A DNA stretch of 64,000 nt from a virus. Lineage: Duplodnaviria; Caudoviricetes. A program made the translations under genes and the position numbers. Below, piece after piece: positions 21,805 to 38,958 of this stretch. Under the pieces are notes generated by a model. That model was not told where the DNA came from, made no database searches, and saw only the letters and a list, made by a program, of their open reading frames with translations. Position 1 is the stretch's first letter; each line of letters starts with the position of its first letter. Where the stretch lies: positions 1 to 64,000 of the IMG/VR virus record IMGVR_UViG_3300032038_000048; one strand, written 5' to 3'.

Positions 21805-21842
21805 AAAAGAAAGGGCCATCCGTGAAGGACAGCCCTTTTCTT
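21805..21842 (-). terminator. Terminator after tape measure gene (probably bidirectional)
   Basis: AAGGGC..GCCCTT stem immediately after the TMP stop, with T-rich runs on both strands. Confidence 0.65.
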
Positions 21843-24800: not shown

Positions 24801-27800
24801 ACTCTTTCTTTTTCTTTAGATCATCCTGCACAAGTTTTACAAAATCGTGCATGGAGTCTGTCATTTTTATTTTGGTCTTAACGCTGACATTTGTCTCAAA
24901 GATGTCCTTTGCTCGTTTCTGCCAGTCGCTTTTAAGGTCAACCAGGGTCTTACTTGTATCAAGACCTTCCTTGAACATTTTCCTCCACGACTCCTTGACA
25001 ATATCGGGCAGTTTACCACCGAACAGATTTTCTGCCCACGCGATTATGATAGCCGAGTTTTCTTCAAGTATCTTATTTAATTCATCTCCTGTGGTAGACT
25101 CTGTAACCATGCCAGCGGTAAGTGACTGGAATTTCTCTAACGCCATCTTCTTAAACATATTCGCTGCTATGTCTGCACCTCCTGAACTCTGCGCTACAAC
25201 AGAAACGAAATCAAACATTATCTGGTCTATCGTAGCAGGGTCGGAGATTTTTGCCTCTGAGAAAAACTTCATCATAGCCTCTTGCAGGTAATGTGCCTGC
25301 CCGTCGGGGTCATCATTGAAGTAATTAGTAAGCACGCCAATCATTGTCGGGGCAAACTCTTCAAAATCTTTGATAAGTTGCTCACGCTGGTCTTTTAGCG
25401 ATTTTCTAAGAAACTTATTGCTTCTTGTTGCATCGTCGGCGAACTGAACGAACTCTTTGTTCATATTCTTGCCGAACATCCACCCATCAAGACCATCGAT
25501 TTTTTTATTTCCACCATCGTCCTTAAAGTACTGCGCGTAAACCCACTCTCTGAACGCATCTGCCCTTGAACCGAGATTCAAGCGTTTCTGAATTTCGTCT
25601 AGTTCACCACCCAGCTTGCCATTAACATTATCCAGCGTGGAGTCGGTTACTTCCATAATGTCAGTACCAAACTGACGGTAACGCTGTGCAAAGTCAGCCA
25701 TATCTTCTGTAAGATCGTCACTAAACGTACTGCCTATATCTTTTGCTGCATCTGCTATAATATTACCTGTTGCAGCCGAAACATCATTGGCATGACGGAT
25801 GCTCTCAAATTTTTTGATAATAGCCTTGAACTGCTCCACTTGATCCTCCATCTTATAAATATCCACCAAGTCACCCTGATAGAATGGAGACATTGCCTGT
25901 AGTTTCTCTTGTAACTCCTGGAAAGTATCTAAACTTAGTTCATTGCGTATAGCATCATCGTCAAAGTCCGTCCTATAGGTTTTGACAAGTCCAGAGCCGG
26001 CATACTGTCTTTTATATAACCGCCTATCAAACAGACTGCCTTTTACGCTTTCAATCAGATCGTTGGCTTCCTTTTCGTCGTTGTCACCTTCGGTACGCAT
26101 TTGGTCTGCGATGCGTTCTGCCCTTGAAGCCATTTCTGAATTACGTTGTATAAGATGTGTGATACCTGCTATAGCGCCCATAAGAAGGGTTACAGGATTG
26201 GCGATTGCAGACATCATACCGCCAAACACGCTGCCTATTTTTGCGCCTAAATTACTGACGGTATATCCAATACTTCTCAGGCTCCTACCCATGCCTGTCA
26301 ACTGTGCGTTATATTGTGCCTGTAATTTACTAAGTCCAGCCAGTCTGCCCGCTGCTTCGCGATATGTCTTCGGTAGGTCTTTATCTACAGACATACTGCG
26401 CAAAGCCCGCTTACTTATGTTGCCTTCGCCAAGTGCCTTGTTTGCGGCAGTCATAAACTGCCTTGTCTCGCGCCAAGATGGAGCAAGCATTGGGTTGCCA
26501 TATCTGCCAGCAAACCCTTGATCGAAACTACCAAAGAAACCTCCTTTTGCAATCGGCTGGCGAATGGCATTTTGCGCACGCGCCATATCCTTTAGATTGT
26601 TTACAACCACAGCACCCTGCTTTCCTGCCGTAGCGTTCACTGCCAGCATAGCCAGTTTAAGCATACCAAGGGGAACAAGTATATCTTTGATGATGGTAGC
26701 ATACTTCTCCCAATTCGCTGTCAGTTCATTCAGAAGTTCCACACCACCCATCAATACACCCTTATTATCCTGTCCCATTTCGGACATCATAATGTTGTAG
26801 TTATTGCGGAGGTTGCGAAGTTTACCACCAAGAGTATCAAACTGACGCTCCTGCATATTATAGAAACGGCCACCAGGCTTATCCAAATCCATGATAACCT
26901 TCTCTACATCTTCAAAGGATATATCCTTGTTGCGCATACGCTTAAAGACTTCGCGTCTTGTTACGGAGGGATCTTGCTGACGATAGTATTTTGCCAGACC
27001 GCCAATAAGGTCTACACCTGCTGTCTCAAATTGCCTGTTTTGAATACCAGATAGATAACCAAACGAACGAACGTGACCGTATGCAAGAATAAGACGCGAC
27101 ACATCAACCGAAAGGCCGGCACCAATATCCGACAACGCTTTCATTGTACTATACAAATCTTTCGTCTGTACACCAAACGCAGCCAATTGTCGTGTTGATT
27201 TCAGTAAGTCCTGAAATGTGTACGGCGATTGCTGTGAGAGGTCGCGGATAGCACCATAAAGTTCACCTGCTTTACCTGCGTTGGCGATAATAACCTCCAG
27301 TGATTTACGTTGCAGTTCCAGTTCGCCCGTTATCTGCGCCATATTCTTTATGAAAGACTGCGCCCCCCATACACTAAGGTATTGTGTAGCCATTGTTCGC
27401 AAGTCGGAGAGCACCTGAGATTGCTTTTGTGCTTGCGAGTTGGTATTGGCAAAAGCATGAGCCAACTTCTGCTCTTCTGCTGTCTGCTGTCCTGTGGCAG
27501 ATGCAGCCCTCATTTTTTCTTCCGCAACCTTTTTCGTCGTTTCGGCTTGTACCCTTGCCTGTTCTGCTATAGGCTCCGTTCTTGCTTTCTGATAATCTAC
27601 ACCTGACTTAAATGAGGTAATACCATATCCTCCGCTATTTACAATAGCTTCAAGTACTTTTAGGTATCTTTCCAAGGCTGCAATCTGACTATAAATCTTC
27701 GTTGTGTCAACCATTACAGCATCGGCCTTAATAGCGGTTTTTGTAAGACTGGCTATTTGACGCAACACAGAAGAATACTCCTTATACGACTCAGCAAGAG

Positions 27801-29829
27801 AGTTGTCGGGCTTCATTGCTGCCATCATTTCTTTCTTGATTGCAGATGCTGCATCGCTGACATTTCTCTTTGCTTGCAGGAAAGCCTCAGATAAAGTGAG
27901 GGCTTTTGTGCTCGAAGAGTTGGTTGAGGCTATTTCAGATAGAGCTTGCTGATATTGCCTTAATTCATTGATAACCGCGCGTAATTGAGTGGTGTCAACA
28001 CCCACCAAGGCACTCGCCTTGCTTGCAAGGGCTTCTAAGTTTGATATTGTTACAGTCAGTCTTTCTGCTTCCCTTTCGGCTTGTTTCATGTTTGAAGCCG
28101 CGAGAGAAAACTCTTGCGACATATCTTTCAGATTGAATTGTCTGGCTTGTGCGTTAATGAGAGCAAGCTGCTGTGCAAACTCTTTTACTGCATGAGCATC
28201 ACCAAAATTACTAAAACCAGACATTAAGCTCTTTAGTCGTTCAAGACTGTCTATGGCTCCCTTGTGGGCAGACACATCAAGTCCTGCTTTACTTCGTTCG
28301 TTAGCAAGGATTTTGATGCGCTCCAACAAAAGCTGTGTCTTTACAAGTGTCAGGTTGTATTGGTGTTCTGCATCCGTTCTAGCATTTATGGCTTTTGTTC
28401 GATTTACATCGTCCTTTGCGTCGGGGAAGATTATACGATAATCAGCATCCCTGCGCATTTCTGCGGGCGACCTATGAGTACCAAGTTCTCCGTTTTTGCT
28501 TATAATCTCCTGCAAAATACTCAGATACCTTCGCGCTGATTCAATCGCCTTGTTTAGCTTTTCATCTTGTTTTACCCCTGCTAATGCGTTTTCGTAGCGA
28601 TGTAAAGCTTCTTCAAGTTTATGATACATTACGATTGCCTCACGCAGGTTTACTTCGTTGACCGCCTTTCGTTGCGCTTCTGTCAGTTCTTTAGGGGCAG
28701 AACCAATATCGTTTACCTTCTTTGAGAGTTCATCAAATAGTTTTTTTAATCTCTCTACCTCTTGCTCGTACTGCTTAATCTTTGCAGGGTCGCCAATCTG
28801 ACTAAGAGCAAGGGAAAGTCGCACCGCAGCCTCCTGTATCTTGTCTGCCGCCACTTTAAGGTCATTAAAAACACCCGCTTCTTTAGTCAGACTTTGCAGG
28901 GCTTTGCTGGTGGCTTCTGCAAGTTGATTTTGCCCACTTGTATTAAGCGTAAGTCCACTTCCAATAGAGTTAAGTGCTGTGCTTAATTGCTCGCAAGCGG
29001 TTTTAAGACCGTTGGTGACGGTTAGCAGATCCTGTACAGCCTTAGCATCTGCCTCTGTTGCCGCTCTTTTCTGCTCTTGTGCCTGAGCCGACTTCTGAGC
29101 CATCTGTGCCGTTTGCCCTTCAATACCAAGGAACTTTTCTATCTGTGCAATTTCTCCCGAGCGATCAAACGGCGCACCCTTCATTGCTCTTATTTCCTGT
29201 AGGCGCTTCCATGCAGATTCCTCTTGTCGTATTTGTTCGATAATCTGCTGTCTTGCGTGGGAGTTACGAGCCTCTGCTTCCGCTTCTGCACTCATGGCTG
29301 TTGCAGCCTTTTGTGTTTCCTGGGTTACGCGCTGTTTGGATGCTGATACTTCATCGGTGCTCTGCTTTAATGTGTTCATACCAGAGATAGCGGCGCGTAT
29401 AGTATGCTCATCCATCCCTAATACACGCTCCTGTATGCGCTTTACATCAACGGCACCATTAAGTTCTTTTGTAAGACTTTCGTATCTTTTCGGTGCTACA
29501 TTTTTTGCTGCATCTATCTGCTTTTGGAGTTCAGCAATACGCTCTACTGCGCCTTGCCATATTTGTAGTCTGCGCTCAAAAGAAGAACCACCAACCTGAG
29601 AGAGTTTTTCGTTCAATTCATCAAACTTACGCATGAGAGGTTCCATTACCTTTCCGTCGCCAATGGATTTTAGATGCTGGATAAGGTCGTTCACCCCCTC
29701 CATTTCTACCTTTATCTTTAGGATGTTACCCATCCTTTTAGACGCATCCTTAAACTCGCGCTCTATCTCTTTGAGTCTTTTTTCGGCACTCTCAATACCG
29801 ACCTCAAACATTAAAGTGTCGTTTGCCAT
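21841..29829 (-). CDS. Tape measure protein
   Basis: 2662 aa, helical; tape_meas-type segment ELELQRKSLEVII..SPYTFQDLLKSTRQLAAFG..QFDTLGGKLRNL. Confidence 0.92.
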   Translation of the reverse strand: MANDTLMFEVGIESAEKRLKEIEREFKDASKRMGNILKIKVEMEGVNDLIQHLKSIGDGKVMEPLMRKFDELNEKLSQVGGSSFERRLQIWQGAVERIAELQKQIDAAKNVAPKRYESLTKELNGAVDVKRIQERVLGMDEHTIRAAISGMNTLKQSTDEVSASKQRVTQETQKAATAMSAEAEAEARNSHARQQIIEQIRQEESAWKRLQEIRAMKGAPFDRSGEIAQIEKFLGIEGQTAQMAQKSAQAQEQKRAATEADAKAVQDLLTVTNGLKTACEQLSTALNSIGSGLTLNTSGQNQLAEATSKALQSLTKEAGVFNDLKVAADKIQEAAVRLSLALSQIGDPAKIKQYEQEVERLKKLFDELSKKVNDIGSAPKELTEAQRKAVNEVNLREAIVMYHKLEEALHRYENALAGVKQDEKLNKAIESARRYLSILQEIISKNGELGTHRSPAEMRRDADYRIIFPDAKDDVNRTKAINARTDAEHQYNLTLVKTQLLLERIKILANERSKAGLDVSAHKGAIDSLERLKSLMSGFSNFGDAHAVKEFAQQLALINAQARQFNLKDMSQEFSLAASNMKQAEREAERLTVTISNLEALASKASALVGVDTTQLRAVINELRQYQQALSEIASTNSSSTKALTLSEAFLQAKRNVSDAASAIKKEMMAAMKPDNSLAESYKEYSSVLRQIASLTKTAIKADAVMVDTTKIYSQIAALERYLKVLEAIVNSGGYGITSFKSGVDYQKARTEPIAEQARVQAETTKKVAEEKMRAASATGQQTAEEQKLAHAFANTNSQAQKQSQVLSDLRTMATQYLSVWGAQSFIKNMAQITGELELQRKSLEVIIANAGKAGELYGAIRDLSQQSPYTFQDLLKSTRQLAAFGVQTKDLYSTMKALSDIGAGLSVDVSRLILAYGHVRSFGYLSGIQNRQFETAGVDLIGGLAKYYRQQDPSVTRREVFKRMRNKDISFEDVEKVIMDLDKPGGRFYNMQERQFDTLGGKLRNLRNNYNIMMSEMGQDNKGVLMGGVELLNELTANWEKYATIIKDILVPLGMLKLAMLAVNATAGKQGAVVVNNLKDMARAQNAIRQPIAKGGFFGSFDQGFAGRYGNPMLAPSWRETRQFMTAANKALGEGNISKRALRSMSVDKDLPKTYREAAGRLAGLSKLQAQYNAQLTGMGRSLRSIGYTVSNLGAKIGSVFGGMMSAIANPVTLLMGAIAGITHLIQRNSEMASRAERIADQMRTEGDNDEKEANDLIESVKGSLFDRRLYKRQYAGSGLVKTYRTDFDDDAIRNELSLDTFQELQEKLQAMSPFYQGDLVDIYKMEDQVEQFKAIIKKFESIRHANDVSAATGNIIADAAKDIGSTFSDDLTEDMADFAQRYRQFGTDIMEVTDSTLDNVNGKLGGELDEIQKRLNLGSRADAFREWVYAQYFKDDGGNKKIDGLDGWMFGKNMNKEFVQFADDATRSNKFLRKSLKDQREQLIKDFEEFAPTMIGVLTNYFNDDPDGQAHYLQEAMMKFFSEAKISDPATIDQIMFDFVSVVAQSSGGADIAANMFKKMALEKFQSLTAGMVTESTTGDELNKILEENSAIIIAWAENLFGGKLPDIVKESWRKMFKEGLDTSKTLVDLKSDWQKRAKDIFETNVSVKTKIKMTDSMHDFVKLVQDDLKKKKEYLKFEASHIEQTLRVKFNIKASASFIMDAKQMEGAIKTIKDRIAALRVQGNDSFANTLQNILEREIMPFYESLNAKREDEKYLKAENYPETDPNKDKKKKSGSKGSHEDKEAKRLREEIKLVKDAYSWYKKYQDELKYSPADAFAEIEKKYADILKKVGITWDAEKGITEYSASLRRLLTEAEGLYNTKGHKNSYMLDVIKELKDAITQVGFDDAKKNLKDFASFTKKQLDDLIRRWEIYNIVRESTGDKVMAGQLAGMNGNEPDLRNSANAIRDSLTKAFSDANIDFASVMDMDDEALEKYVSGLGVSHDKVQGLIDALKKWRDLQRNVLKTDISNYAKVVGGLKSYSAEIKKIDDKLRQDKEANNALVGKNGFTQEQADNANNILQTQADWQKMKMSADYANLYNNAIALSRKEFENSAEAVEKLIKRLRELGIISPDEFVQEQQKLNKARQEWSTTGFLGERGAFGQFLAGGNDGLMNYYKARGEAARQRQKNAKEGSEDEANAKKEAEHYEKLNKQLVELTDEAKDLMTAFSTLQSGLSMLSEMFASMGMEGAANTMSDAAGLLGGTLQGASSLSALGPWGMAAGAAVGLTTGLFQLHDKQLAREIEKLRKDVQKIEANTTLILKSRERTLGYDSGDLRRAYALGYTGLNATNLWTGEQVQSKDMRDMMNYYLRNSSGNGYSQQYQNLINERQDYLDILYKQESMKNKSNEDIEETKSKIAELDDQIRFFSEDLAKELWAIDIKGWADQINDALVSAFENGEDMAKAFGDTAKSIMQSVVSEILKIGFIEPMIENLRKKIFGYTDENGNKIVGTFDHNNPQSSMGATLTTIADYFKPGGEGSQMSIAANEFLSGIDQMMKNLGYPNGLKGSSTSTLGDGIQSSMTEETAGVLSGYIAAMRQDLSVIRIMKQMQYDEFVKTYWADYITQVVMIATQLGGIRSDTQTMMQMMRDGNGALYDRVARIETLLNNATVSANGAFHVK

Positions 29830-29844
29830 AGTCTGTTATCTGTG

Positions 29845-30414
29845 TTAGTTCTTTCTTTTAAGCTTCACTAATGATACCGCAGTGTCCTCGGTGTGCTTTA
29901 GCATAGCAAAATAGCCCGTTGTGTGTCGCTGAAACTCCACCCACGCCGCATATTCGGATGTATATGCCACAACGATAGCGTATTCTGCCTTGACCTTCGG
30001 TCTATATCTGGATGCAAAATGCGCAGCGTCAATCTCTCCCCAACTGCCATCGGTGGGCACTTCGGGCAGATAAGAAGAGCGGTGGCCCTCCCAGTCGGGT
30101 TTAAGGTGTATGCGATACCGTCTCTTTCTACCCTTTGAGTTTAGTGCGCTCATCTCCTTGCGTATGGCAGGTTTTCGCACAACTGAGTTTGAGAAAAACT
30201 CCGCACGCTTATTCCCTTCATAGAGAACAACGACAATGCTGTTTATAAGGTTTCCCGTGAAGTTGTGTGCATCCTTGGCGCCTCTCCTGTATCGCACCGC
30301 TGCATCTATCAGATTTTCACACCAACTGCATAGCCGCTGGTATGTCCTTGGTTTTACGGTATCTTCGTAGAACCGCTTAAACGCTTCGGATATTACGGTG
30401 TTGTTGCCAGTCAT
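29845..30414 (-). CDS. Putative neck/tail-completion protein (HK97 gp10-like position)
   Basis: HNFTGNLINSI..IVVAYTSEYAAWVE motif; the start is moved to MTGNNT. Confidence 0.55.
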   Translation of the reverse strand: MTGNNTVISEAFKRFYEDTVKPRTYQRLCSWCENLIDAAVRYRRGAKDAHNFTGNLINSIVVVLYEGNKRAEFFSNSVVRKPAIRKEMSALNSKGRKRRYRIHLKPDWEGHRSSYLPEVPTDGSWGEIDAAHFASRYRPKVKAEYAIVVAYTSEYAAWVEFQRHTTGYFAMLKHTEDTAVSLVKLKRKN

Positions 30415-30440
30415 TCGTTTTTGTTGTTGTATTGGACGCA

Positions 30441-30471
30441 CAAATATAAAAAATATTTACATTTATACAAA
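30441..30471 (-). promoter_or_regulatory. Bacteroidota sigma-A type promoter driving the 29845 gene and TMP
   Basis: Minus strand TTTG-N19-TATATTTG. Confidence 0.7.
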
Positions 30472-30588: not shown

Positions 30589-30936
30589 GTGATTATGAAA
30601 AACATTCTATTAGCATTATTCCTATGTATTCCACTGTTATGTGGAGCTCAGACAAAAGTAAAGCAGTATATCCGCGTCTTTATCCCCGATAATGCCACGG
30701 GTTCATCTATCTCTGGTGCCGATGCTTACAGTAAGCAGCAATTGGAGCCTATCATGCAAGGCGAGACAAAACTAAAATTCAAGTCAGATACCGAAGGGAT
30801 AAATTATCTGGCACTGCACGGATGGGAACTGGTTCCGCTTAATCTCTCCAGTGGCTACCATTATTTTGTCAGAGAGGTTGAGTTAACTGATAAAATCATA
30901 GTAGAACCGAAAAATTTTGACAAAAAAGAGAAGTAG
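30589..30936 (+). CDS. Exported hypothetical protein (moron-like)
   Basis: Signal peptide MKNILLALFLCIPLLCGA-Q; own promoter; antisense to the tail operon. Confidence 0.7.
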   Translation: MIMKNILLALFLCIPLLCGAQTKVKQYIRVFIPDNATGSSISGADAYSKQQLEPIMQGETKLKFKSDTEGINYLALHGWELVPLNLSSGYHYFVREVELTDKIIVEPKNFDKKEK

Positions 30937-31108: not shown

Positions 31109-31402
31109 TTATCCTTTGTCAACTCCCTTAAATTCTCCTGTAGACAAAAAGGTGTTCATGTCGCACCGCTTCTCTTTCTTTGGTATTATTTTACGCCGTT
31201 TGAAGTTCTTCACGAGATTCTTTGCTTCCGATGCACTCATGCCTTTGTAACCTTTCTCTCCTGGTTTCGTGTGGTTATCATCTTTCTTGTACACGAGTAA
31301 CGGTTGATCTATTGTTCTTAACTCTACTTGCGCGGCAGTTCTTCCCCATAACCATTCCCAATCATACACAGTTAAAAGGCCGAAGAAGAAGGATTTGCTC
31401 AT
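31109..31402 (-). CDS. Tail assembly chaperone T-segment (probably reached by -1 frameshift)
   Basis: In the -1 frame of 31405-31941 and open back to the A9 run at 31555-31563. Confidence 0.65.
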   Translation of the reverse strand: MSKSFFFGLLTVYDWEWLWGRTAAQVELRTIDQPLLVYKKDDNHTKPGEKGYKGMSASEAKNLVKNFKRRKIIPKKEKRCDMNTFLSTGEFKGVDKG

Positions 31403-31404
31403 CG

Positions 31405-31941
31405 TCAGGTATTGTCTTGCTTTTCCGTCCCCTCCTGCCGAGCCGTAGCGAGTTCTTGAAGGATATGTTCTGCTTCTTCCATCCTCATGTTCATCAGAGT
31501 AGCCCTTGCCCCTGTCAACGATGTGATAGTCATTAAGAATCCCATGAGCGGAACTTTTTTTTTACCCTCATCAAGTATTCCCTGCAACTGAATGTTGTCG
31601 TATTGACGTATGTAATAAAACCACCTCCAGAGATACCAGTAGCGCAGTTTTAACTTCCAGTAGCCATCAAGGATGTAGATTGCAGCCGCCTTGCACGCTA
31701 TTTTCCCGTCAGTTTTAATTGCATCGAGCGGGTTGTCATGCTTACCGTCTTCGTTGTCGGTCTTACCTTTGCGTATCAACAAGCGCGACAAGCGTTCTAT
31801 CTGACCGTTTTTCAGCCAGCGTATCTTATACTTCTTCCTTGTCCGTAATATTCGGACGACAGTAGGAGTGTTATCCACGATGGATGCGTACTCCCTCTGC
31901 GAGCCTACTGAGGGCTGCTCTATTTTCGGTTCTTTTTCCAT
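31405..31941 (-). CDS. Tail assembly chaperone (G-like)
   Basis: Lies between tail tube and tape measure and carries the slippery GGT AAA AAA AAA G. Confidence 0.65.
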   Translation of the reverse strand: MEKEPKIEQPSVGSQREYASIVDNTPTVVRILRTRKKYKIRWLKNGQIERLSRLLIRKGKTDNEDGKHDNPLDAIKTDGKIACKAAAIYILDGYWKLKLRYWYLWRWFYYIRQYDNIQLQGILDEGKKKVPLMGFLMTITSLTGARATLMNMRMEEAEHILQELATARQEGTEKQDNT

Positions 31942-31953
31942 ATCTTTAACGTG

Positions 31954-32664
31954 TTAGGTATATAGTTCTTTGTTCTTTTTCAACCATTCTTCTGCACTTC
32001 CATCTATCCATGAGCCATGACCGAGATGTATCATATATGGTGTAATATTAACATTAAGGTATGGGAGGTTGTGTTGACAGCAGTCTTTGAAAAACCATGC
32101 GCCTGTGTCATAGCGGTTGTTCGGTGTCTTGTGGCTTAGTGCCCACATATAATTTGAATTAAAGTAGGTTACGCCGTTGACTTTTATCTTAGGTGTATTG
32201 ATGTAGCAGAGAAAAGGCTCTACACGATATATTTCTAATCCAAATCGCTGACGGGTGTTGCAGACGATGTGCCCGACAAATGCGTAACGTGGGTTACAAA
32301 GTTCAGAAATATCCCGACGGACAAGTATATCCGAATCCATTAAAACAAACGGCTCTTCAAGATGTTCGATAAGCCACTGCACAGACATACAATGTTTGGC
32401 TGAACCGTAATTGGATTTGTTTATTGCTCCCGTTTCTTTGTCAGGGAACTGTGATAAATACACATCAAAGCCTATTATCTGACCTTTGGTATTATCAATT
32501 ACCTCCACAAACCTATTAAAACCATCTGGTATAATGAATGGTTTTGTGTCACTATTATCAAACACGACTATCCTGCAATCCTGCGTATGCTTATTAAGCG
32601 AGCGTACTGTAGCAGCAGTTAGTTCGGGTGTATTATAATGGACTATACAGACGGTCTTTTTCAT
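31954..32664 (-). CDS. Glycosyltransferase, GT-A fold (GT2-like)
   Basis: VCIVHYNTPEL..IVVFDNS N-terminal nucleotide-binding strand pattern; DxD motif LMDSDILV. Confidence 0.8.
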   Translation of the reverse strand: MKKTVCIVHYNTPELTAATVRSLNKHTQDCRIVVFDNSDTKPFIIPDGFNRFVEVIDNTKGQIIGFDVYLSQFPDKETGAINKSNYGSAKHCMSVQWLIEHLEEPFVLMDSDILVRRDISELCNPRYAFVGHIVCNTRQRFGLEIYRVEPFLCYINTPKIKVNGVTYFNSNYMWALSHKTPNNRYDTGAWFFKDCCQHNLPYLNVNITPYMIHLGHGSWIDGSAEEWLKKNKELYT

Positions 32665-33410
32665 ACTTGCAGCGTTTTGCGTTGTCTCGCGTTCTCCGTT
32701 ATTACTCTTTTATAGATCTTAGGATTAGGATATTTTGCCATAATATAAGCACTGATTATGCGCTCTCCCAAATGCCCGCCAAGCCTGTATTGATTTTCCA
32801 ACACAGAACAGTTTCTTTTTGGTCTAAAGTAGACGTTTTGATGGATGATTATGCGTTCGCGTACATCCCATCCGATTATTTCAAGGTAGTTATCAAGACA
32901 ATCCCACACAAGATGCATCATTTCCAAAAAGTCCTGCTTTTTCATAATGAACATACTGCATGGATATATCCAGTCTTCTCGAAGCATCTTCTCAAAACGC
33001 GGCCAAAGCCAATGATGACGATTATAAATAATAGCCATCATTACATCCATATCAACAAATGAGAAGCATTTTGCGTACTGATTATAGACGGTGGGTTCTA
33101 CATGACGAGGTTCTGTCGTGATACACCCATGCTTGTCTACCAATGACTTTATGTCGGGGATGTTATCCATAAATTCATAGTATTTCCTATAATGGCAAAA
33201 ACCCACATATTCAGGCAGCTCATCTGGCCTGTCTGCGAGGTATTTATAGGTCAGTAACTCTGAATAAAACAACCCGTCAACCCCACTCGGCGACTTATCA
33301 TCGGGGATTAGTTTCCTAACATCGGCGACCCTATAAACGCTGTTCTTGACGGAGCTCGAAAAGTCAGCGTGTGTACATATATAGATTACTGCTTTTTCGT
33401 TCATTCGCAC
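32661..33410 (-). CDS. DUF4422-family putative glycosyltransferase
   Basis: IYICTH, YSELLTY, YVGFCHYRKY, CSMFIMKK, RLGGHLGERII. Confidence 0.8.
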   Translation of the reverse strand: MRMNEKAVIYICTHADFSSSVKNSVYRVADVRKLIPDDKSPSGVDGLFYSELLTYKYLADRPDELPEYVGFCHYRKYYEFMDNIPDIKSLVDKHGCITTEPRHVEPTVYNQYAKCFSFVDMDVMMAIIYNRHHWLWPRFEKMLREDWIYPCSMFIMKKQDFLEMMHLVWDCLDNYLEIIGWDVRERIIIHQNVYFRPKRNCSVLENQYRLGGHLGERIISAYIMAKYPNPKIYKRVITENARQRKTLQV

Positions 33411-34285
33411 ATCTTTAGTTTTTCTCCAATCGCCCCTCTTGTCAGACTGGCAAATTCTGATATATCCTCCATCGTTTCGTGGTCGTTAACGCAGACGATT
33501 CCGCAGTCGGGCTTCTTTATGGTTTCAATCGTTCTTTGTGCTCCAATCTTTACACCTGCGTAATAATGTTCAGGTGTATGATCTACATACTCGCTTGTAA
33601 AATACTGCCACAAGGTATAGATATACTGATTGTAACTTGTCTCGGTGCGATCTGGTGTTATTCCGCTTAATATCTCAGCACCAAACCGCCTGTGAACCTC
33701 CATACATACACCTTTAAGCAGCGGAGCAAGGCTGTGCCCGTTGCGAAGTAAGGTCTTACTGTATTTTTTGCCAAAGTGCGAACCAACCATATTCTGCTGT
33801 CTCATGCACTTCTTTTGAAAAATGTTCGGAATTGGTGGAAATTGCGTTTCGTATATATGTATGCAGGGCTTCCCCTCAATAAAGAAGTCGTTTTCTTTAA
33901 GTGGTGACAATGGAAACATATCATCGTTACCGTAAATAAAAGCCTCTGACACATCGCCTATGTATGGCAGAAACATTTCGATAGTGCAGCTATTGAATGT
34001 TGGCAGATATTTTTCTGGAATAAACTGCTTATGAAAAACAACATTCACCCCCTCTTCCTTCATCCACGGCTGCACCTGGCTTTCACGCGCAAGCAAGATG
34101 TGTATATCTCCCACCCACGGCATGAATTTCTTTATACATTTGATTAGTAGATGCTCGGCACCCCATGACCTAAACCTCACGTTGCGCCCAATATTAGAAG
34201 GACGTGTTTTTTGAGATGCAAAGTAGTCGTTGCGCCACTTTACATCGCTTTCAAAAACCATCGGGACAACGTAGTCTATTTTCAT
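33401..34285 (-). CDS. Stealth-family (CpsY-like) hexose-1-phosphate transferase
   Basis: CR1 KIDYVVPMV; CR2 RFRSW..FMPWV..LPTFNSCTIEMFL..FIYGNDDMF; CR4 IVCVND. Confidence 0.88.
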   Translation of the reverse strand: MKIDYVVPMVFESDVKWRNDYFASQKTRPSNIGRNVRFRSWGAEHLLIKCIKKFMPWVGDIHILLARESQVQPWMKEEGVNVVFHKQFIPEKYLPTFNSCTIEMFLPYIGDVSEAFIYGNDDMFPLSPLKENDFFIEGKPCIHIYETQFPPIPNIFQKKCMRQQNMVGSHFGKKYSKTLLRNGHSLAPLLKGVCMEVHRRFGAEILSGITPDRTETSYNQYIYTLWQYFTSEYVDHTPEHYYAGVKIGAQRTIETIKKPDCGIVCVNDHETMEDISEFASLTRGAIGEKLKMCE

Positions 34286-34296
34286 GGGATATTATA

Positions 34297-34333
34297 GAAA
34301 AGCGGTGTGACGCTTATGCTGCGCCACGCCGCC
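34297..34333 (-). terminator. Terminator-like hairpin after tail tube gene
   Basis: GCGGCGTG..CACACCGC stem followed by TTTT on the minus strand. Confidence 0.5.
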
Positions 34334-34352
34334 GAATGAAAGAAAGCAGATT

Positions 34353-34955
34353 CTAAGAACTTGCGGAAGTTTCTTCGAGGAAGCCGATTGCATCGTCTGC
34401 ACCACCAGCAAGACTTGCACCAGTCATTATCACGCTGACGGGTTTTGCGCTGTCTGCTTCATCGAAGTTGATGCTAGCCTGAACCTTAACCTTCTTCAGG
34501 AACATAACACGATTATCTTCATCGTTGAAGCCGATAAGACCAAGGGTGAGGGCTTTGGGAGACTCAGAATAAGCCTTTCCAGTGAACGTGCGACCATTGA
34601 TGGTGCGAGTTACATCGGTAGCCTTAAAACCGCAAAAACTGAGAATTTCGGTCTGATAGGTAGGAATCTCAATGTTTACCTCAGAATCTCCAGGGGTAAT
34701 GCGTGCGGTATAGGCACCCATCATTCCATGAATGTTAAAACGCTCAACAGAGGGAGTTCCACCAGTGTAGGAGAAGCCACCGTCACGACGAACAGGAACC
34801 TGTATGCAGTTGCCTGTCACCCAGCCACCTGCGGGCATAGATTCGGTTTCGCTAATAGCACCGCTGTCGGGTATTCCACCCAGAACAGCATAAACACCGC
34901 TCAGACCGACAAAGGTTTTTTCCTGAGCAGAAGCTTTTGTTATTGTTGCTGCCAT
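34353..34955 (-). CDS. Major tail (tube) protein
   Basis: 200 aa after the tail-terminator-like gene and before the chaperones; ends ..FLEETSASS. Confidence 0.7.
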   Translation of the reverse strand: MAATITKASAQEKTFVGLSGVYAVLGGIPDSGAISETESMPAGGWVTGNCIQVPVRRDGGFSYTGGTPSVERFNIHGMMGAYTARITPGDSEVNIEIPTYQTEILSFCGFKATDVTRTINGRTFTGKAYSESPKALTLGLIGFNDEDNRVMFLKKVKVQASINFDEADSAKPVSVIMTGASLAGGADDAIGFLEETSASS

Positions 34956-34957
34956 AG

Positions 34958-35464
34958 TTATGTGTGATTAGTTAGTTGATTACTGAAAATATTCCACCTG
35001 CAACGCAGGTTAAAAGTTATCATTGTCACCTGAAACCCAGTTCCGTCACTCCCCAATAGCCTCGGTTCGGGATTTGTGCATACGCAATACTCTCCTTTAA
35101 TTGGGAAAAGGTTTACAACATCATCCACCATTGTACCCATAGGTGTAACATCAAGCGTGTCGTCTTTCTTACTTTGCACAAAAACGTATATAACACCTTC
35201 TGTTTCCAATAATGTTTTATTGTTACCTGCGACATAATCGCGTATGGCTAACGGTAGATCTATCACAGCCATCTTCTGTGTCATGGCATCTCCGTTTATC
35301 AACTTCGGTCTGTCTTTCAGCCGAATATCCTTAGCGGGCACGACGTTTTTCATCGCGTTAACCAAGTCACTGTAGATGTTGTATAAAACAGGTTTGTTTG
35401 CCATGTTAGTTCCTTCCGTATTTCCAAACAAGATGTGTTCCTGCGAATTGGGCGGTTGCAACAT
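34958..35464 (-). CDS. Putative tail terminator/completion protein
   Basis: Position upstream of the tube gene; alpha/beta pattern. Confidence 0.5.
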   Translation of the reverse strand: MLQPPNSQEHILFGNTEGTNMANKPVLYNIYSDLVNAMKNVVPAKDIRLKDRPKLINGDAMTQKMAVIDLPLAIRDYVAGNNKTLLETEGVIYVFVQSKKDDTLDVTPMGTMVDDVVNLFPIKGEYCVCTNPEPRLLGSDGTGFQVTMITFNLRCRWNIFSNQLTNHT

Positions 35465-35900
35465 TTTTGTCTATTACCCTTCCATATTCCGTAAAAACAT
35501 CATGCTTTACAATAATCTCATCACCTTCTTCTGGTGCCACTCCTAGCTCTTTCCACCCATCCTGATTTAGAGGCAAGGCGAGACCTCTATACGAGGTTAT
35601 CACTTCTCCCTTGTCCGATGTGGTATTCTTTTCGTAGCTGCGGCACTTACCTTCATAGATAACGGTAATGGTTGTACCGTTGTCGGTGACGACATTTGCA
35701 TCCTCAGTCAAAGGGTCGTAACCTTCACTTGATACCGATGCGCTACCATCACCGGAAAGAGGGCTGAAATCCTCTTCCTCCTTCATAGGGTCGTCCGTTT
35801 GCTTACGGATTATCCTACACCAGTGTGGGTAACGGGGATTTATATCGTCCATTATCGGCATTTTTGAGGGTTGCGAATACCTCGGCCAACCATTCCCCAA
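35406..35900 (-). CDS. Putative head-closure (stopper) protein
   Basis: NPRYPHWCRIIR..IYEGKCRSY; position in the head-tail block. Confidence 0.5.
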   Translation of the reverse strand: MGNGWPRYSQPSKMPIMDDINPRYPHWCRIIRKQTDDPMKEEEDFSPLSGDGSASVSSEGYDPLTEDANVVTDNGTTITVIYEGKCRSYEKNTTSDKGEVITSYRGLALPLNQDGWKELGVAPEEGDEIIVKHDVFTEYGRVIDKNVATAQFAGTHLVWKYGRN

Positions 35901-36241
35901 CGCTCTACACCCACCGTTGGCAGGTCGTATTTAGCGAAGATTTTGTTAGCCATAGCAAGGTACTGTTTCAGAACATTAGCGGACATTCTCTCTCCACCTG
36001 TCGTATGTTCCCAGTCGGCATCCGACTCGCGGATAGTACCAGTCTGAGTAGGACCGCCTGCCACCCACACATATAGCCATGCGAGAACTAAATCCCGCTG
36101 TTTCTGTGTGGCATCCATATATACTGTTTCGGGCGATACCTCTACATCTGCGCATATTGACAATATGGCATTGTCAGGAACAGTTATATTCCTGACTTTG
36201 CCATTTAAGTAGTCTTTTATAGTGAAGGTTGAATTATCCAT
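35852..36241 (-). CDS. Putative head-tail adaptor
   Basis: Small helical protein directly after the capsid gene. Confidence 0.5.
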   Translation of the reverse strand: MDNSTFTIKDYLNGKVRNITVPDNAILSICADVEVSPETVYMDATQKQRDLVLAWLYVWVAGGPTQTGTIRESDADWEHTTGGERMSANVLKQYLAMANKIFAKYDLPTVGVERWGMVGRGIRNPQKCR

Positions 36242-36263
36242 TTCAGGCTATATATGAAGTTTG

Positions 36264-37439
36264 TTAGCTGCTGGCGCTGCTGCTAGTACCCGAACTTGAA
36301 CTTGCGGTCTCATCCCATACGGTAACAATACCATACTCATCCAGGTTATTGAACACAGGACCCGCGTACAGTTCGCAGTCAACGATATTCATAATAGGAC
36401 GCTCCTGCCAACTGTTAAGTACGGCGATGCGACCTTCAACGAATGAATAGAGGTCAGAGGGGTTAAGACCACCCAGCTTCACCCTGTCAGCATAGATTGA
36501 GTTCATGCACTTCATCTCAAACGGACGATAAGCTCTGCTTACTGCGGCGATGTTGTGCTTGTCGAAAGCAGGAGCATCGGCAACAGGCTTGCCATCTTCC
36601 TCGTGACGAGACTTGAAGTCAATAACATCAAACGGCCAGATACCCATATCCTGATGCAGCCATGTGAGAACATCGGTGCGAGCCACCTTTATGTCTGCAT
36701 TTGTCGGAGCGTAGTAATTCTTCGATTCTTTGTATGCGGCAATCACCTTCGGGTGCTTCAAAACCTTGTCGAACAGCTCTCTTGACATCTTCCAGTGGTC
36801 CACACCAAGCGAAAGGGTGTTAGTGTAGTAGTCCTGGAAGTCGAGCAGATCCTGAACCACATCAGCACTTGCATTGGGAGCACCAGTAGCATCAAACCAG
36901 TTAGCGGTCGGTCTCAAGAAGTTCTCGTTAGGTATCTGGAAGTCAAAGTCGTAGGTGTAGCCATCCACTGCTACATCATAGATACGGCCAGTAGACATTG
37001 CCTGCAAGGTCATGTATGACAGTTCGTTGTGGATGCCACCGAGCATATTGCTGGAGTTCTGAATGAAGCTGTCAAGAAGAACCTCGCCAAATGCCTGGTC
37101 GTTGATTTTTGACAAGCGACGAAGTTCGAGCAGGTCATCCTGGGTGATATTGAAGCCGTGACCTATCTTAGGCAGCGTGCCAGCATACAGTTTCCATCCT
37201 TCTGTACTGCGCTGCGGCTTCTCAGAGTGTGTACCGAGAACGCTTGCACGAACAAGGATAGGAGTTTTCTTAACACCCTGCTTCCAATCGCGATCGTTGG
37301 TAGGCTGCCCCCATGTAGCGTATTTGCGCCAGATAGCATTGTTGTACTTGCTATTTACACTATCAAGGATAAGCTTAAAGTCTTCTGTACCAAGATAGTT
37401 ATACAGTCCACCTATGCCATATAAATTCATGTCTCTCAT
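36264..37439 (-). CDS. Major capsid protein (HK97 fold, lambda gpE-like)
   Basis: 391 aa after scaffold/decoration; GTLPKIGHG, HNELSYMTLQAMSTGRI..YDFDFQIP, W..ADVVQDL; ends WDETASSSSGTSSSASS. Confidence 0.85.
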   Translation of the reverse strand: MRDMNLYGIGGLYNYLGTEDFKLILDSVNSKYNNAIWRKYATWGQPTNDRDWKQGVKKTPILVRASVLGTHSEKPQRSTEGWKLYAGTLPKIGHGFNITQDDLLELRRLSKINDQAFGEVLLDSFIQNSSNMLGGIHNELSYMTLQAMSTGRIYDVAVDGYTYDFDFQIPNENFLRPTANWFDATGAPNASADVVQDLLDFQDYYTNTLSLGVDHWKMSRELFDKVLKHPKVIAAYKESKNYYAPTNADIKVARTDVLTWLHQDMGIWPFDVIDFKSRHEEDGKPVADAPAFDKHNIAAVSRAYRPFEMKCMNSIYADRVKLGGLNPSDLYSFVEGRIAVLNSWQERPIMNIVDCELYAGPVFNNLDEYGIVTVWDETASSSSGTSSSASS

Positions 37440-37455
37440 AATCTAAACTCCTTTC

Positions 37456-38097
37456 TTATTTACGGTTAGAGAAACGGAAATAGCACTCGTTGTCACGGAG
37501 AGCCTTTTTCAAACTGTCAGTCAGAGGGAGCATACGACGTTCGAGGACAGGCTTGTCAATGCAGTTCCAAACGTAGTCTATATCCATAGCGTATGCTTTC
37601 TCGTCACGCACATTATCACAGTAGGTCAGACCGTTAGGTATGGCGATGATTTTCTTATCGTCACCACTAACAGCCAGCACATCGTTGACGGAGATGCCAG
37701 TAGTAGCATCTACAGTCAATACATCCACATCATCAGCAGAAGAATCCACACTGGCAACGGTAGCCTGATTTGCGCTGGCCTGCGAAAGGTCTGCGCCAAC
37801 AGGGATAAGCTTCATTCCTGCGGAAGCGAGTGTTCCAGTTTCAAACTTCTCAACAGTGATGGTTTTTGCACCAGAATCAACGGCAGTCACCTTAAAGGTG
37901 TAGATGGGGGTAATTGTACGCGCCTGCTCGTCGGCATACACCAAGGTACCTGCGGGAACTGCTGCGTTCAGGGGCAGAAGGTCAATGTCAACCTTAAAGC
38001 CACCAACAGCCACAGTAGGCTTTCCTTCGTAGCATTTGCGGACACCACCACATTTTGTACTCCAGTCGAAGTAATTGTTGGTTGTTCCTTTTCTCAT
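37456..38097 (-). CDS. Head decoration / capsid cement protein
   Basis: VPAGTLV motif; lies between scaffold and capsid. Confidence 0.65.
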   Translation of the reverse strand: MRKGTTNNYFDWSTKCGGVRKCYEGKPTVAVGGFKVDIDLLPLNAAVPAGTLVYADEQARTITPIYTFKVTAVDSGAKTITVEKFETGTLASAGMKLIPVGADLSQASANQATVASVDSSADDVDVLTVDATTGISVNDVLAVSGDDKKIIAIPNGLTYCDNVRDEKAYAMDIDYVWNCIDKPVLERRMLPLTDSLKKALRDNECYFRFSNRK

Positions 38098-38142
38098 TTT
38101 AGTCTTTGTTTTGGTTGAAAACTCTCTTTTACGTTCGTGTGG

Positions 38143-38958
38143 TTACACAAACGATTTTGCCAAGTCAGATGAATAGTTCATGTTTTCCGTAGCCTCGGTG
38201 CTCAACTTGTCAAGTTTCTCTTTGACAAAAGAAACGCCACCTCCTGTACCACCCGAACTGTTTCCTCCAAATGGCTGTCCTCCGTCGCCATAAAACCTCT
38301 TGTAGTTGCTTTCGTAGTTCTTCTCAGCAAGAACTTTCAGTTCGGCGATATTTGGGGTTTCTCCGATTTTAATCTGTCCTACAGTAAGGTCAATGACCGC
38401 CTCTTTGTCAGCCTTACGGCTTTTCAGATAACTTGTCAGTTCCTTTCGGACATTATTTTCCACGGAAGCCTTTTCTCTCGCTTTGAAATCTTTTGTAAAA
38501 TCGGATATTTCCTTCATGCTCTTGCCAATAATACCGTCTTCTTTGGTTAACTGCAAAATAGCAGCCTCTACAGCGGCATTTATCTTGCTTTCAATATCAT
38601 CGGCATTGCGCTCAACGGCCTTATCATCGGGCTTGATGCTCTTTTTGTATTCCTCAATCGCATCTTCCTTTGCTTTACGAATACGCTCCTCTACATCTTT
38701 CTCATGCTCAGAAGTGTAATCTTTCTTGTATTTCTCTGCGAACACCTTGTCATCGTGACGCTTCTGGCCTGCATATTCCCTAAGAACAGCAAGAGGTTGC
38801 GACCACGTTTCATCGGTAATTGCTTCATCGTTGGCAAACTGGCTCAGATATATGCCAGCGATACCGTCAAACGTCTTGTTACTAATAACCGATGCTGTGT
38901 CTTCTCCCAGCTTCGATTTTAGATTTTCAACGAGAATGTCTTTCTCCATTTGTTTCAA
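38143..38958 (-). CDS. Capsid scaffolding protein
   Basis: Highly charged coiled-coil protein with a Gly-rich C-terminal linker; first gene of the head operon. Confidence 0.6.
   Translation of the reverse strand: MKQMEKDILVENLKSKLGEDTASVISNKTFDGIAGIYLSQFANDEAITDETWSQPLAVLREYAGQKRHDDKVFAEKYKKDYTSEHEKDVEERIRKAKEDAIEEYKKSIKPDDKAVERNADDIESKINAAVEAAILQLTKEDGIIGKSMKEISDFTKDFKAREKASVENNVRKELTSYLKSRKADKEAVIDLTVGQIKIGETPNIAELKVLAEKNYESNYKRFYGDGGQPFGGNSSGGTGGGVSFVKEKLDKLSTEATENMNYSSDLAKSFV

Follow-up and report, generated by a model that had tools for sequence, protein, structure and literature searches.

The first 64 kb of the 86-kb linear viral record IMGVR_UViG_3300032038_000048, hereafter referred to as the window, contain a siphophage morphogenesis operon that includes a cassette of three enzyme genes, encoding a Stealth-family protein, a DUF4422 protein and a protein with the GT-A fold of glycosyltransferases (GTs). 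The major capsid protein and the tail tube protein encoded by the same operon end in serine-rich tags. Comparison with related loci revealed that the presence of these tags is evolutionarily coupled to that of the enzymes, and we consider it likely (probability about 0.7) that the cassette enzymes modify the tagged virion proteins by glycosylation. To our knowledge, mycobacteriophages are the only phages in which enzymes of the phage itself have been shown to glycosylate the virion, and there this changes recognition by antibodies.

The first gene of the cassette (33401-34285, minus strand) encodes a compact Stealth-family enzyme of 294 amino acids (aa), a putative hexose-1-phosphate transferase. 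Residues 37-137 match the Stealth_CR2 domain (PF11380) with 84 bits, the Pfam cut-off being 39.4, and the Pfam models for Stealth CR1, CR3 and CR4 gave no match to this protein at E ≤ 0.01. A phmmer search against PDB aligned residues 6-228 with the catalytic domain of CpsY (8j2n; E value 1.2e-15). This alignment takes in the N-terminal D..W stretch and the FxYxNDDMF stretch, in which the NDDMF motif is kept. The catalytic domain of GNPTAB was also matched (E value ~1e-9). These results uphold the Stealth assignment made in a preliminary description of this DNA. In one metagenome strain (run X1), the gene carries a 9-nucleotide (nt) in-frame insertion at window position 33458.

The second gene (32661-33410, minus strand) encodes a 249-aa protein that matches PF14393 with 58.6 bits (cut-off 25), which bears out its earlier assignment to DUF4422. 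This domain is now defined as GT111, the galactofuranosyltransferase domain of Klebsiella WbbM (PMC12269835). The HYR[RK] motif is present, reading GFCHYRKY in the window and ..GFMHYRR.. in WbbM, and the DUF4422+GT fusion protein of a relative matched the N-terminal domain of WbbM with an E value of 2e-8. Look-alikes of the window protein in the ESM Atlas belong to DUF4422 clusters, which are mainly viral. The product of this gene would be a GT111-type galactofuranose (Galf) transferase.

The product of the third gene (31954-32664, minus strand; 236 aa) had been described as a GT-A glycosyltransferase with a DxD motif, for which the family Glycos_transf_2 was considered. The first part of this description stood. 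Its AlphaFold2 (AF2) model (predicted local distance difference test score, pLDDT, 94) matched LARGE1, TarP, GlyE, LgtC, glycogenin and WbbM (6u4b) with a Foldseek probability of 1.0, and the protein contains a D110-S-D112 motif and a C-terminal H213/H216/S218/W219 motif, in which D110, D112, H213 and W219 are invariant in the alignment of homologues. The GT2 (Glycos_transf_2) identity was rejected, because the protein has no Pfam match and its fold is GT8-like instead. PHROGs and NCBIfam gave no match for it either, nor for the other two enzymes, and searching PDB with a sequence profile of the GT-A family yielded chance-level matches only, so that its identity rests on the fold. The GT8 model PF01501 was found on 4 of the 120 homologues listed, out of 309 homologues. 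As the fold, the DxD motif and the histidine motif are present but the window protein lacks a PF01501 match, we call it GT8-like and not GT8. None of the three enzymes contains a hydrophobic, transmembrane or signal segment.

The 391-aa major capsid protein (36264-37439, minus strand) was identified by matches to Pfam Phage_cap_E (E value 3.7e-12) and phrog_29 (E value 1e-21). Its C-terminus reads ..DETASSSSGTSSSASS / ..VTVWDETASSSSGTSSSASS, and its tag corresponds to the last 13 residues, TASSSSGTSSSASS (36267-36305), a poly-Ser extension that is absent from 53 cassette-free relatives. The serine codons of the tag are mixed (AGT, TCA, TCG and AGC); the tag is therefore not one simple repeat. 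The 200-aa protein encoded at 34353-34955 (minus strand), which ends ..GFLEETSASS, gave no match to the hidden Markov models (HMMs) of Pfam and PHROGs. Its AF2 model, built on 36 homologues (pLDDT 83), matched the tail tube proteins of Bxb1, JBD30, YSD1, lambda (gpV) and Chi with a Foldseek probability of 1.0. Judged by this modelled fold it is the tail tube protein, as had been proposed. The tube tag comprises the last 6-7 residues (34356-34376) and lies on a C-terminal extension that is apparent in the alignment of tube homologues; with 3 Ser among the last 8 residues, it is weaker than the capsid tag. Both tags read exactly as noted earlier. When the open reading frames (ORFs) of the whole 86-kb record were screened for C-termini rich in Ser and Thr, the capsid gene was the sole convincing ORF at the threshold used; the other ORF that passed (90 aa, 85317-85589, minus strand) was taken as spurious.

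The distribution of tags and enzymes was analyzed in ~260 loci gathered from uncultured viral contigs and genome bins, using as seeds the window capsid and two further capsid types, Stealth, the GT-A family and the chaperone. Counts were made over 81 distinct tube variants, leaving out a third lineage characterized by an InlB-B-repeat protein. With Stealth beside the tube gene, 15 variants have a capsid poly-Ser tag and 6 do not, that is, 15/21 are tagged; without it, the numbers are 0 tagged and 53 untagged, or 0/53 (Fisher p 3e-11). For the full cassette, the corresponding numbers are 13 tagged and 1 untagged with it, and 2 tagged and 58 untagged without it (Fisher p 1.4e-11). The tube tag is likewise found in 17 variants with Stealth, being absent from 6, and in 2 variants without Stealth, being absent from 56.

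The C-termini themselves illustrate these counts. In phages having the three activities between the tube and chaperone genes, the capsids end in runs like GEASSSSSSSE, IGVASSSSSSASSSSE or KEDDGSSSSSASSSSASSSSE, and the tubes in ELSASS, ISGSSSE or LDSGSSN. The cassette-free close relatives of the tagged capsids have capsids ending ..KIYTPQ and tubes ending ..FEIAAGE. All 50 capsids from loci found with the window capsid as seed (60-74% identity) end in ..TVW[KS][DE] followed by 0-3 residues, and a Ser tail was present in 0/50. The four or five genes located between those of capsid and tube never encode tags in clades A and B.

The same relation was found in a second lineage, whose capsid is of a distinct phrog_29 type and whose genes follow the order tube, DUF4422-GT fusion, Stealth. 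Every cassette carrier of lineage 2 is tagged on both capsid and tube. The untagged members of the lineage are cassette-free; they are L178, whose 98%-complete genome lacks Stealth, L180 and L181. For example, the lineage 2 tubes end in ..LFLKKQGSSSSE with the cassette versus ..LFLKKSA without it. Both the sequence and the codon use of the tags differ among the lineages. In lineage 2, poly-Ser ends were also observed on two other proteins, namely a 146-aa protein encoded right after the capsid gene (..ASSSSSSEGGSSSE; L069:5723-6163) and a 176-177-aa protein encoded right after Stealth (..TLSTSSSSD; L104:11566-12099 and L059:10881-11411); neither gave an HMM match.

As a phylogenetic control, independent contrasts were calculated over well-supported branches of a tube tree built without the tag columns. 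Of 7 independent contrasts, ~6.2 have Stealth changing in the same direction as the capsid tag and 0 in the opposite direction (sign test, median p 0.031). Smaller sets were one-directional and not significant (41 capsids, p 0.25; 53 tubes, p 0.06), p 0.03 being reached by the enlarged set only. In the capsid tree, the tagged capsid of the window nests among untagged capsids, its nearest relative being that of L001 (75% identity), and the tagged L053 is sister to the untagged L039-L044; tags have therefore been gained or lost on otherwise similar capsids. The preliminary description had proposed to examine whether tags and cassette co-occur across related phages, and named Ser tails kept by cassette-free relatives, or the reverse, as a refutation. 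The outcome did not refute the idea, as cassette-free relatives do not keep Ser tails (0/53, against 15/21 with Stealth), 13/14 full-cassette phages have tagged capsids, and the association survives phylogenetic correction.

Gene fusions provide a link between the three activities. In clade B, a single ORF of 740-746 aa combines Stealth, DUF4422 and the GT8-like domain (L090:8450-10672, L091:8432-10672, L094:8447-10669 and L096:8441-10672), the window having the unfused form, and the window Stealth is sister to these tri-domain enzymes in the Stealth tree. In lineage 2, the DUF4422 and GT-A domains form a fusion protein of ~447 aa, and larger phages have fusions of Stealth with GT2_4/GT92-like and GT-A domains. 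Such fusions tie the three activities to one pathway. The GT content is highly variable, and DUF4422 is missing from some tagged lineage 2 phages; this variability suggests variable glycans on a common anchor. In one locus (L092:5170-7530), a 786-aa protein combines GT92/GT2_4-like, GT11 (fucosyltransferase) and DUF4422 domains and adjoins a GT8-like gene. In another (L059:9139-9999), a 286-aa gene between the DUF4422-GT fusion and Stealth encodes a phosphoribosyltransferase domain and a polynucleotide-kinase/phosphatase-like part; its product may supply or modify a donor.

Taken together, we propose that the three soluble enzymes would be late products of the structural operon, their level probably being reduced by the hairpin ahead of their genes, and that in the host cytoplasm they would modify the short flexible Ser-rich C-terminal tags of capsid and tube during assembly, with host nucleotide sugars as donors. 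We infer that the tags are the acceptors and that they are surface-exposed. As capsid and tube are high-copy virion proteins, the virion would exit the cell bearing hundreds of glycan chains. Sugar would thereby be attached, perhaps by a phosphodiester link and as a capsule-like glycan, with a possible role in immune shielding or in mucus. Such a coat could shield the particle from antibodies or host defences, promote adherence to mucus or polysaccharides, or confer colloidal stability.

Several observations weigh against glycosylation of the tags by the cassette enzymes. The phage is uncultured and known from sequence alone. The tube tag of the window is short, and a cassette-free tube (L012; ..SLASGS) passes the same threshold. 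A gene for UDP-galactopyranose mutase (Glf) was not found in the phage record, so the Galf donor would need to be supplied by the host. The one full-cassette phage with an untagged capsid (L057) tags its tube alone. Conversely, L169 and L170 have kept tags with Stealth alone, a state that may reflect recent loss of the other enzymes and not sufficiency of Stealth. Six Stealth-only phages (L003, L004, L006, L063, L260 and kin) have no C-terminal tags, so that Stealth does not always imply tags. Finally, the cassette, capsid and tube genes are linked within ~3 kb, and part of the association could hence be due to co-inheritance of a module.

The tubes of the untagged Stealth-only phages (L003:3559-4164, L004:11891-12499, L006:12967-13581 and L062:1283-1900) contain an exposed loop of 21-27 residues, versus 11-21 elsewhere, which is the richest in Ser, Thr and Gly; an example is VDFTTASSGQSAGIAVATPSASD. 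The longest such loop is present in four of these phages (L003, L004, L063 and L006) and not in L260. As a lead only, the loop might be an internal acceptor, a pattern that L260 breaks. A GT8-like homologue that is not part of the tail operon and lies ~9 kb upstream of the gene for the capsid was observed in L004:125-304, L014:854-1540 and L199:639-2201; these phages are cassette-free or Stealth-only, and untagged. The third lineage, consisting of 100-140-kb phages, encodes a protein of 426-430 aa that contains a divergent InlB B-repeat domain, has acidic Ser-rich ends (..FESESASSDSGSSN; L100:14149-15441 and relatives L184-L195) and lies ~4-6 kb from Stealth-GT fusions, and Stealth-free members have other C-termini. 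It could not be identified as a capsid protein, and in one tagged member, the 32%-complete record L193, Stealth is not seen.

If the tags are acceptors, the order in which the enzymes act has to be considered. Speculatively, Stealth would act first, transferring hexose-1-phosphate onto the tag serines to give a Ser-O-phosphate-sugar link, and the GT111 and GT8-like pair would then extend the chain, this domain pair being that of the galactan polymerase WbbM. Because Stealth is the only enzyme common to all tagged phages, it is the one most likely to act on the tag itself, and as the tag-linked enzyme it makes a Ser-phosphate-sugar link plausible. In line with this, phages with a GT-A homologue elsewhere and no Stealth are untagged. 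The case for a Stealth-made phosphodiester to serine is a weak one, and we would put its chances at somewhat below even. The Stealth gene of L169, which nests within lineage 2 in the Stealth tree, was imported from that lineage, which weakens the argument for Stealth acting first, and the known Stealth enzymes act on sugar acceptors and not on protein serine (PMC5974469). The same acceptors could be used in another order: the GT8-like or GT111 enzyme would place the first sugar on serine, as ordinary O-glycosylation comparable to that of serine-rich-repeat adhesins and glycogenin, and Stealth would only branch or cap this glycan with a sugar-phosphate, in the way that GNPTAB acts on mannose. 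That the acceptor is a sugar hydroxyl for all Stealth enzymes characterised (PMC5974469), including the GNPTAB and CpsY matches, that the GT8 fold matches glycogenin and GlyE act on protein-bound glycans, and that 13/15 tagged capsids have at least one GT besides Stealth all speak for such an order. It is difficult to reconcile with L169 and L170, which have long tags on capsid and tube with Stealth only, no GT8-like gene having been found in the 51-kb, 59%-complete record, with the absence of both Stealth and tags from L014 and L199, which carry a GT8-like gene elsewhere, and with the tagged lineage 2 phages that lack DUF4422. We regard it as improbable. Also tentative, and unlikely in its entirety, is the fullest form of the Stealth-first order, in which Stealth puts sugar-1-phosphate on the tag serines, the GT111/GT8 pair polymerises a galactan-like chain, and a widespread group of Bacteroidales phages from rumen and gut wears a phosphodiester-anchored capsule-like coat; the same form holds, with the same reservation, that the coat would be encoded by a portable one- to three-gene module and a portable peptide tag.

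Two further explanations leave the tags unglycosylated. The cassette might remodel the capsule, the lipopolysaccharide (LPS) or another surface polymer of the host, for instance for superinfection exclusion or release, with the Ser tags being unrelated and unmodified. Stealth, GT111 and GT8 are indeed best known from capsule and O-antigen pathways (PMC5974469, PMC12269835), the six Stealth-only phages are untagged, and the enzyme genes are lower in G+C (0.40-0.43) than the tube, capsid and chaperone genes that flank them (0.47-0.49), as expected for an acquired accessory module. The solubility of the enzymes and their location in the late structural operon argue against an action on host envelope glycans, and the phage has no membrane anchor, flippase, polymerase or initiating transferase. 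Moreover, tags are present simultaneously on two different high-copy virion proteins, and after phylogenetic correction tags and enzymes are still coupled, in two capsid lineages. This makes host remodelling very unlikely. Even smaller is the chance of genetic hitch-hiking, according to which capsid, tube and cassette form one recombining module, and the tags have a different function, for instance solubility or phosphorylation by a host kinase. The genes do lie within ~3 kb, phage structural modules are exchanged as blocks, and the Stealth tree shows transfer between lineages, L169 being the example. However, the window capsid is closest to an untagged one (75% identity to L001), whereas its Stealth is closest to clade B, the capsids of which are only ~41% identical to that of the window. 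The histories of tag and backbone thus differ, contrary to what simple hitch-hiking would predict. In addition, in clades A and B tags are never found on the products of the four or five intervening genes, and the differences in tag sequence and codon use between lineages indicate that tags were not copied as one block. Glycosylation of the tagged proteins by the cassette enzymes therefore accounts best for the combined observations.

The operon runs on the minus strand from position 38958 down to 21841. It starts with a scaffold-like gene, a 213-aa gene, the capsid gene and three small head-tail genes, continues with the 200-aa tube gene and the Stealth, DUF4422 and GT8-like genes, and ends with two small genes, a short plus-strand gene, a 198-aa gene and a 2662-aa tape-measure-sized gene. 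The three enzyme genes overlap each other by 10 and 4 nt; their cassette starts 67 nt past the tube gene, and 12 nt separate it from the following gene. The preliminary description placed the cassette between the tube gene and the tail chaperones. Its coordinates and tube gene proved correct, and the chaperones are presumed from their position and synteny: they correspond to two small ORFs (178 and 97 aa; 31109-31941, minus strand) for which no informative HMM match was found. In all relatives, a conserved homologue of the 178-aa ORF immediately follows either the cassette or the tube gene. Likewise, the 2662-aa ORF (21841-29829, minus strand) is presumed to encode the tape measure protein because of its length and position.

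Between the tube stop codon and the Stealth start codon, the minus strand can form a 12-bp hairpin followed by UUUUCU (34301-34333). Its predicted RNA fold has an energy of -22.5 kcal/mol (z -3.6), and 0/200 shuffled sequences folded equally well. The hairpin looks like an attenuator or terminator, and together with the U-tract it fits enzyme levels lower than those of the structural proteins.

Two other features of the operon were observed. The 198-aa gene (29845-30441, minus strand; phrog_5377, function not assigned) lies between the chaperones and the tape measure gene in the window, and in all of ~60 relatives its homologue is placed between the second and third head-tail genes; it has been relocated in the window, where these two head-tail genes now overlap. 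The short opposite-strand gene inside the tail operon (30589-30936, plus strand) encodes 115 aa with an N-terminal signal or lipoprotein-like sequence (..LFLCIPLLCGAQ..). It gave no informative HMM match and looks like a moron, for example a superinfection-exclusion lipoprotein.

The phage had been described as infecting Bacteroidota. This is supported indirectly, and a Bacteroidales host is suggested, because relatives occur in ruminant genome bins of Prevotella, Bacteroidales, Bacteroidaceae, Porphyromonadaceae and Prevotellaceae. Near-identical DNA was present in runs of at least 12 studies, chiefly of bovine gut. A ~99% identical contig from another study spans the region with the cassette and both tags intact and no indel in the tags, and no variation in tag length was seen across four runs. 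One metatranscriptome run contains identical contigs that cover 34447-34945 and 35046-38200, from capsid to tube, whereas the enzyme genes are not covered; no conclusion was drawn from this, as contigs of an RNA library are no proof of transcription and a gap is no proof of its absence. DNA and protein searches of GenBank phage records revealed no relatives of the region beyond distant capsids, with 20-29% identity only, including those of Parabacteroides and Bacteroides phages, and no Stealth or GT8-like (GT-A) homologue was found among 50,697 GenBank phage records. Among the papers searched, none described such a system, including for Bacteroides phages.

If the tags are indeed glycosylated, an unrelated enzyme set and a simple poly-Ser tag would do the same job in abundant gut and rumen Bacteroidales phages as the mycobacteriophage enzymes do. 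The interplay of gut phages with mucus, immunity and bacterial capsules may then differ from current assumptions, surface chemistry could account for some phage persistence, and the interpretation of metaproteomic and cryo-EM data on virions would need to allow for glycans. It would also provide a minimal tag-plus-enzyme system with which protein assemblies could be made to display glycans. With a Ser-phosphate-sugar link, the substrates of Stealth would come to include proteins besides sugars, and direct transfer of sugar-1-phosphate to the tag serines by Stealth, if real, would be without a described precedent as protein phosphoglycosylation in viruses or bacterial systems.

The closest precedent is provided by Che8 and other cluster F1 mycobacteriophages, for which glycans at the C-termini of capsid and tube subunits are reported in the passages of PMC12619734 and PMC11256854 that cite Freeman et al. 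2023. These phages and the window share phage-encoded glycosyltransferases and a short C-terminal motif common to capsid and tube, which in Che8 end ..NKTGS and ..SDGS, respectively. The enzymes are different: Che8 gp108-110 belong to the Pfam families GT2+methyltransferase, GT2 and GT25, and Che8 has no Stealth, GT111 or GT8-like enzyme, whereas the three enzymes of the window include no homologues of the Che8 GT2, GT25 and methyltransferase. The Che8 glycosyltransferase genes are located at the far right genome end and those of the window inside the tail operon. Moreover, the terminal G-S of Che8 contrasts with the poly-Ser runs of 6-20 residues in the tags of the window and its relatives, the actinobacterial host with the Gram-negative Bacteroidales host indirectly supported here, and a phosphodiester link is possible in the window phage, as read from its genes.

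The Stealth family's hexose-1-phosphate transferases include the capsule polymerases CsaB and CsxA of N. meningitidis, CpsY of M. tuberculosis and animal GNPTAB (Sperisen et al. 2005; PMC5974469). The phage enzyme resembles them in its CR2 region and NDD motif, and the alignment with the CpsY catalytic domain covers most of it. It is much shorter, has no extra domains and is encoded in a virion operon, and instead of a capsule chain or N-glycan it would probably use a protein tag or protein-bound sugar as acceptor. WbbM of Klebsiella pneumoniae O2a (PDB 6u4b), in the account of Clarke et al. given in PMC12269835, is a bifunctional GT111 Galf transferase and GT8 galactan-I polymerase. It contains the same domain pair, and relatives of the phage fuse DUF4422 and the GT8-like domain in the same order. 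In the window, these are two separate overlapping genes whose products are half the size of WbbM, with a GT8-like domain that Pfam GT8 does not recognise, and the acceptor would be a protein instead of an undecaprenyl-linked primer.

Ser-rich stretches also serve as acceptors in other systems. In Leishmania proteophosphoglycans they accept sugar-1-phosphate. For Dictyostelium proteinase I, GlcNAc-1-P-Ser (N-acetylglucosamine-1-phosphate on serine) is mentioned in bioRxiv 10.1101/2025.09.30.679562 with reference to Haynes 1998 and Gustafson & Milner 1980, and the same preprint models an environmental glycofibril as Ala-Ser repeats with Ser-phosphate-linked glycans. The likeness of the Leishmania and Dictyostelium systems to the window phage lies in Ser-rich stretches as acceptors for sugar-1-phosphate; these systems are eukaryotic, and phosphoglycosylation in the window phage would be a putative parallel. 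The serine-rich-repeat adhesins of Gram-positive bacteria are glycosylated by GtfA/B and GT8 enzymes such as GlyE (PMC6973325, PMC7948813). They share with the proposed system of the window Ser-rich low-complexity acceptors that are glycosylated in the cytoplasm, prior to export or assembly, and the fold of GlyE matches that of the window's GT8-like enzyme. They differ in that no GtfA/B-type initiating enzyme was seen in the cassette and that the phage tags are very short, C-terminal and located on a virus particle. Finally, the capsid of Chlorovirus PBCV-1 is glycosylated by virus-encoded multidomain glycosyltransferases (PMC7826918). In this case too, a virus uses its own enzymes, including a three-domain fusion, to modify its major capsid protein in the cytoplasm, but the atypical N-linked glycans of this eukaryotic giant virus are located at internal sites, and its enzymes are unrelated.

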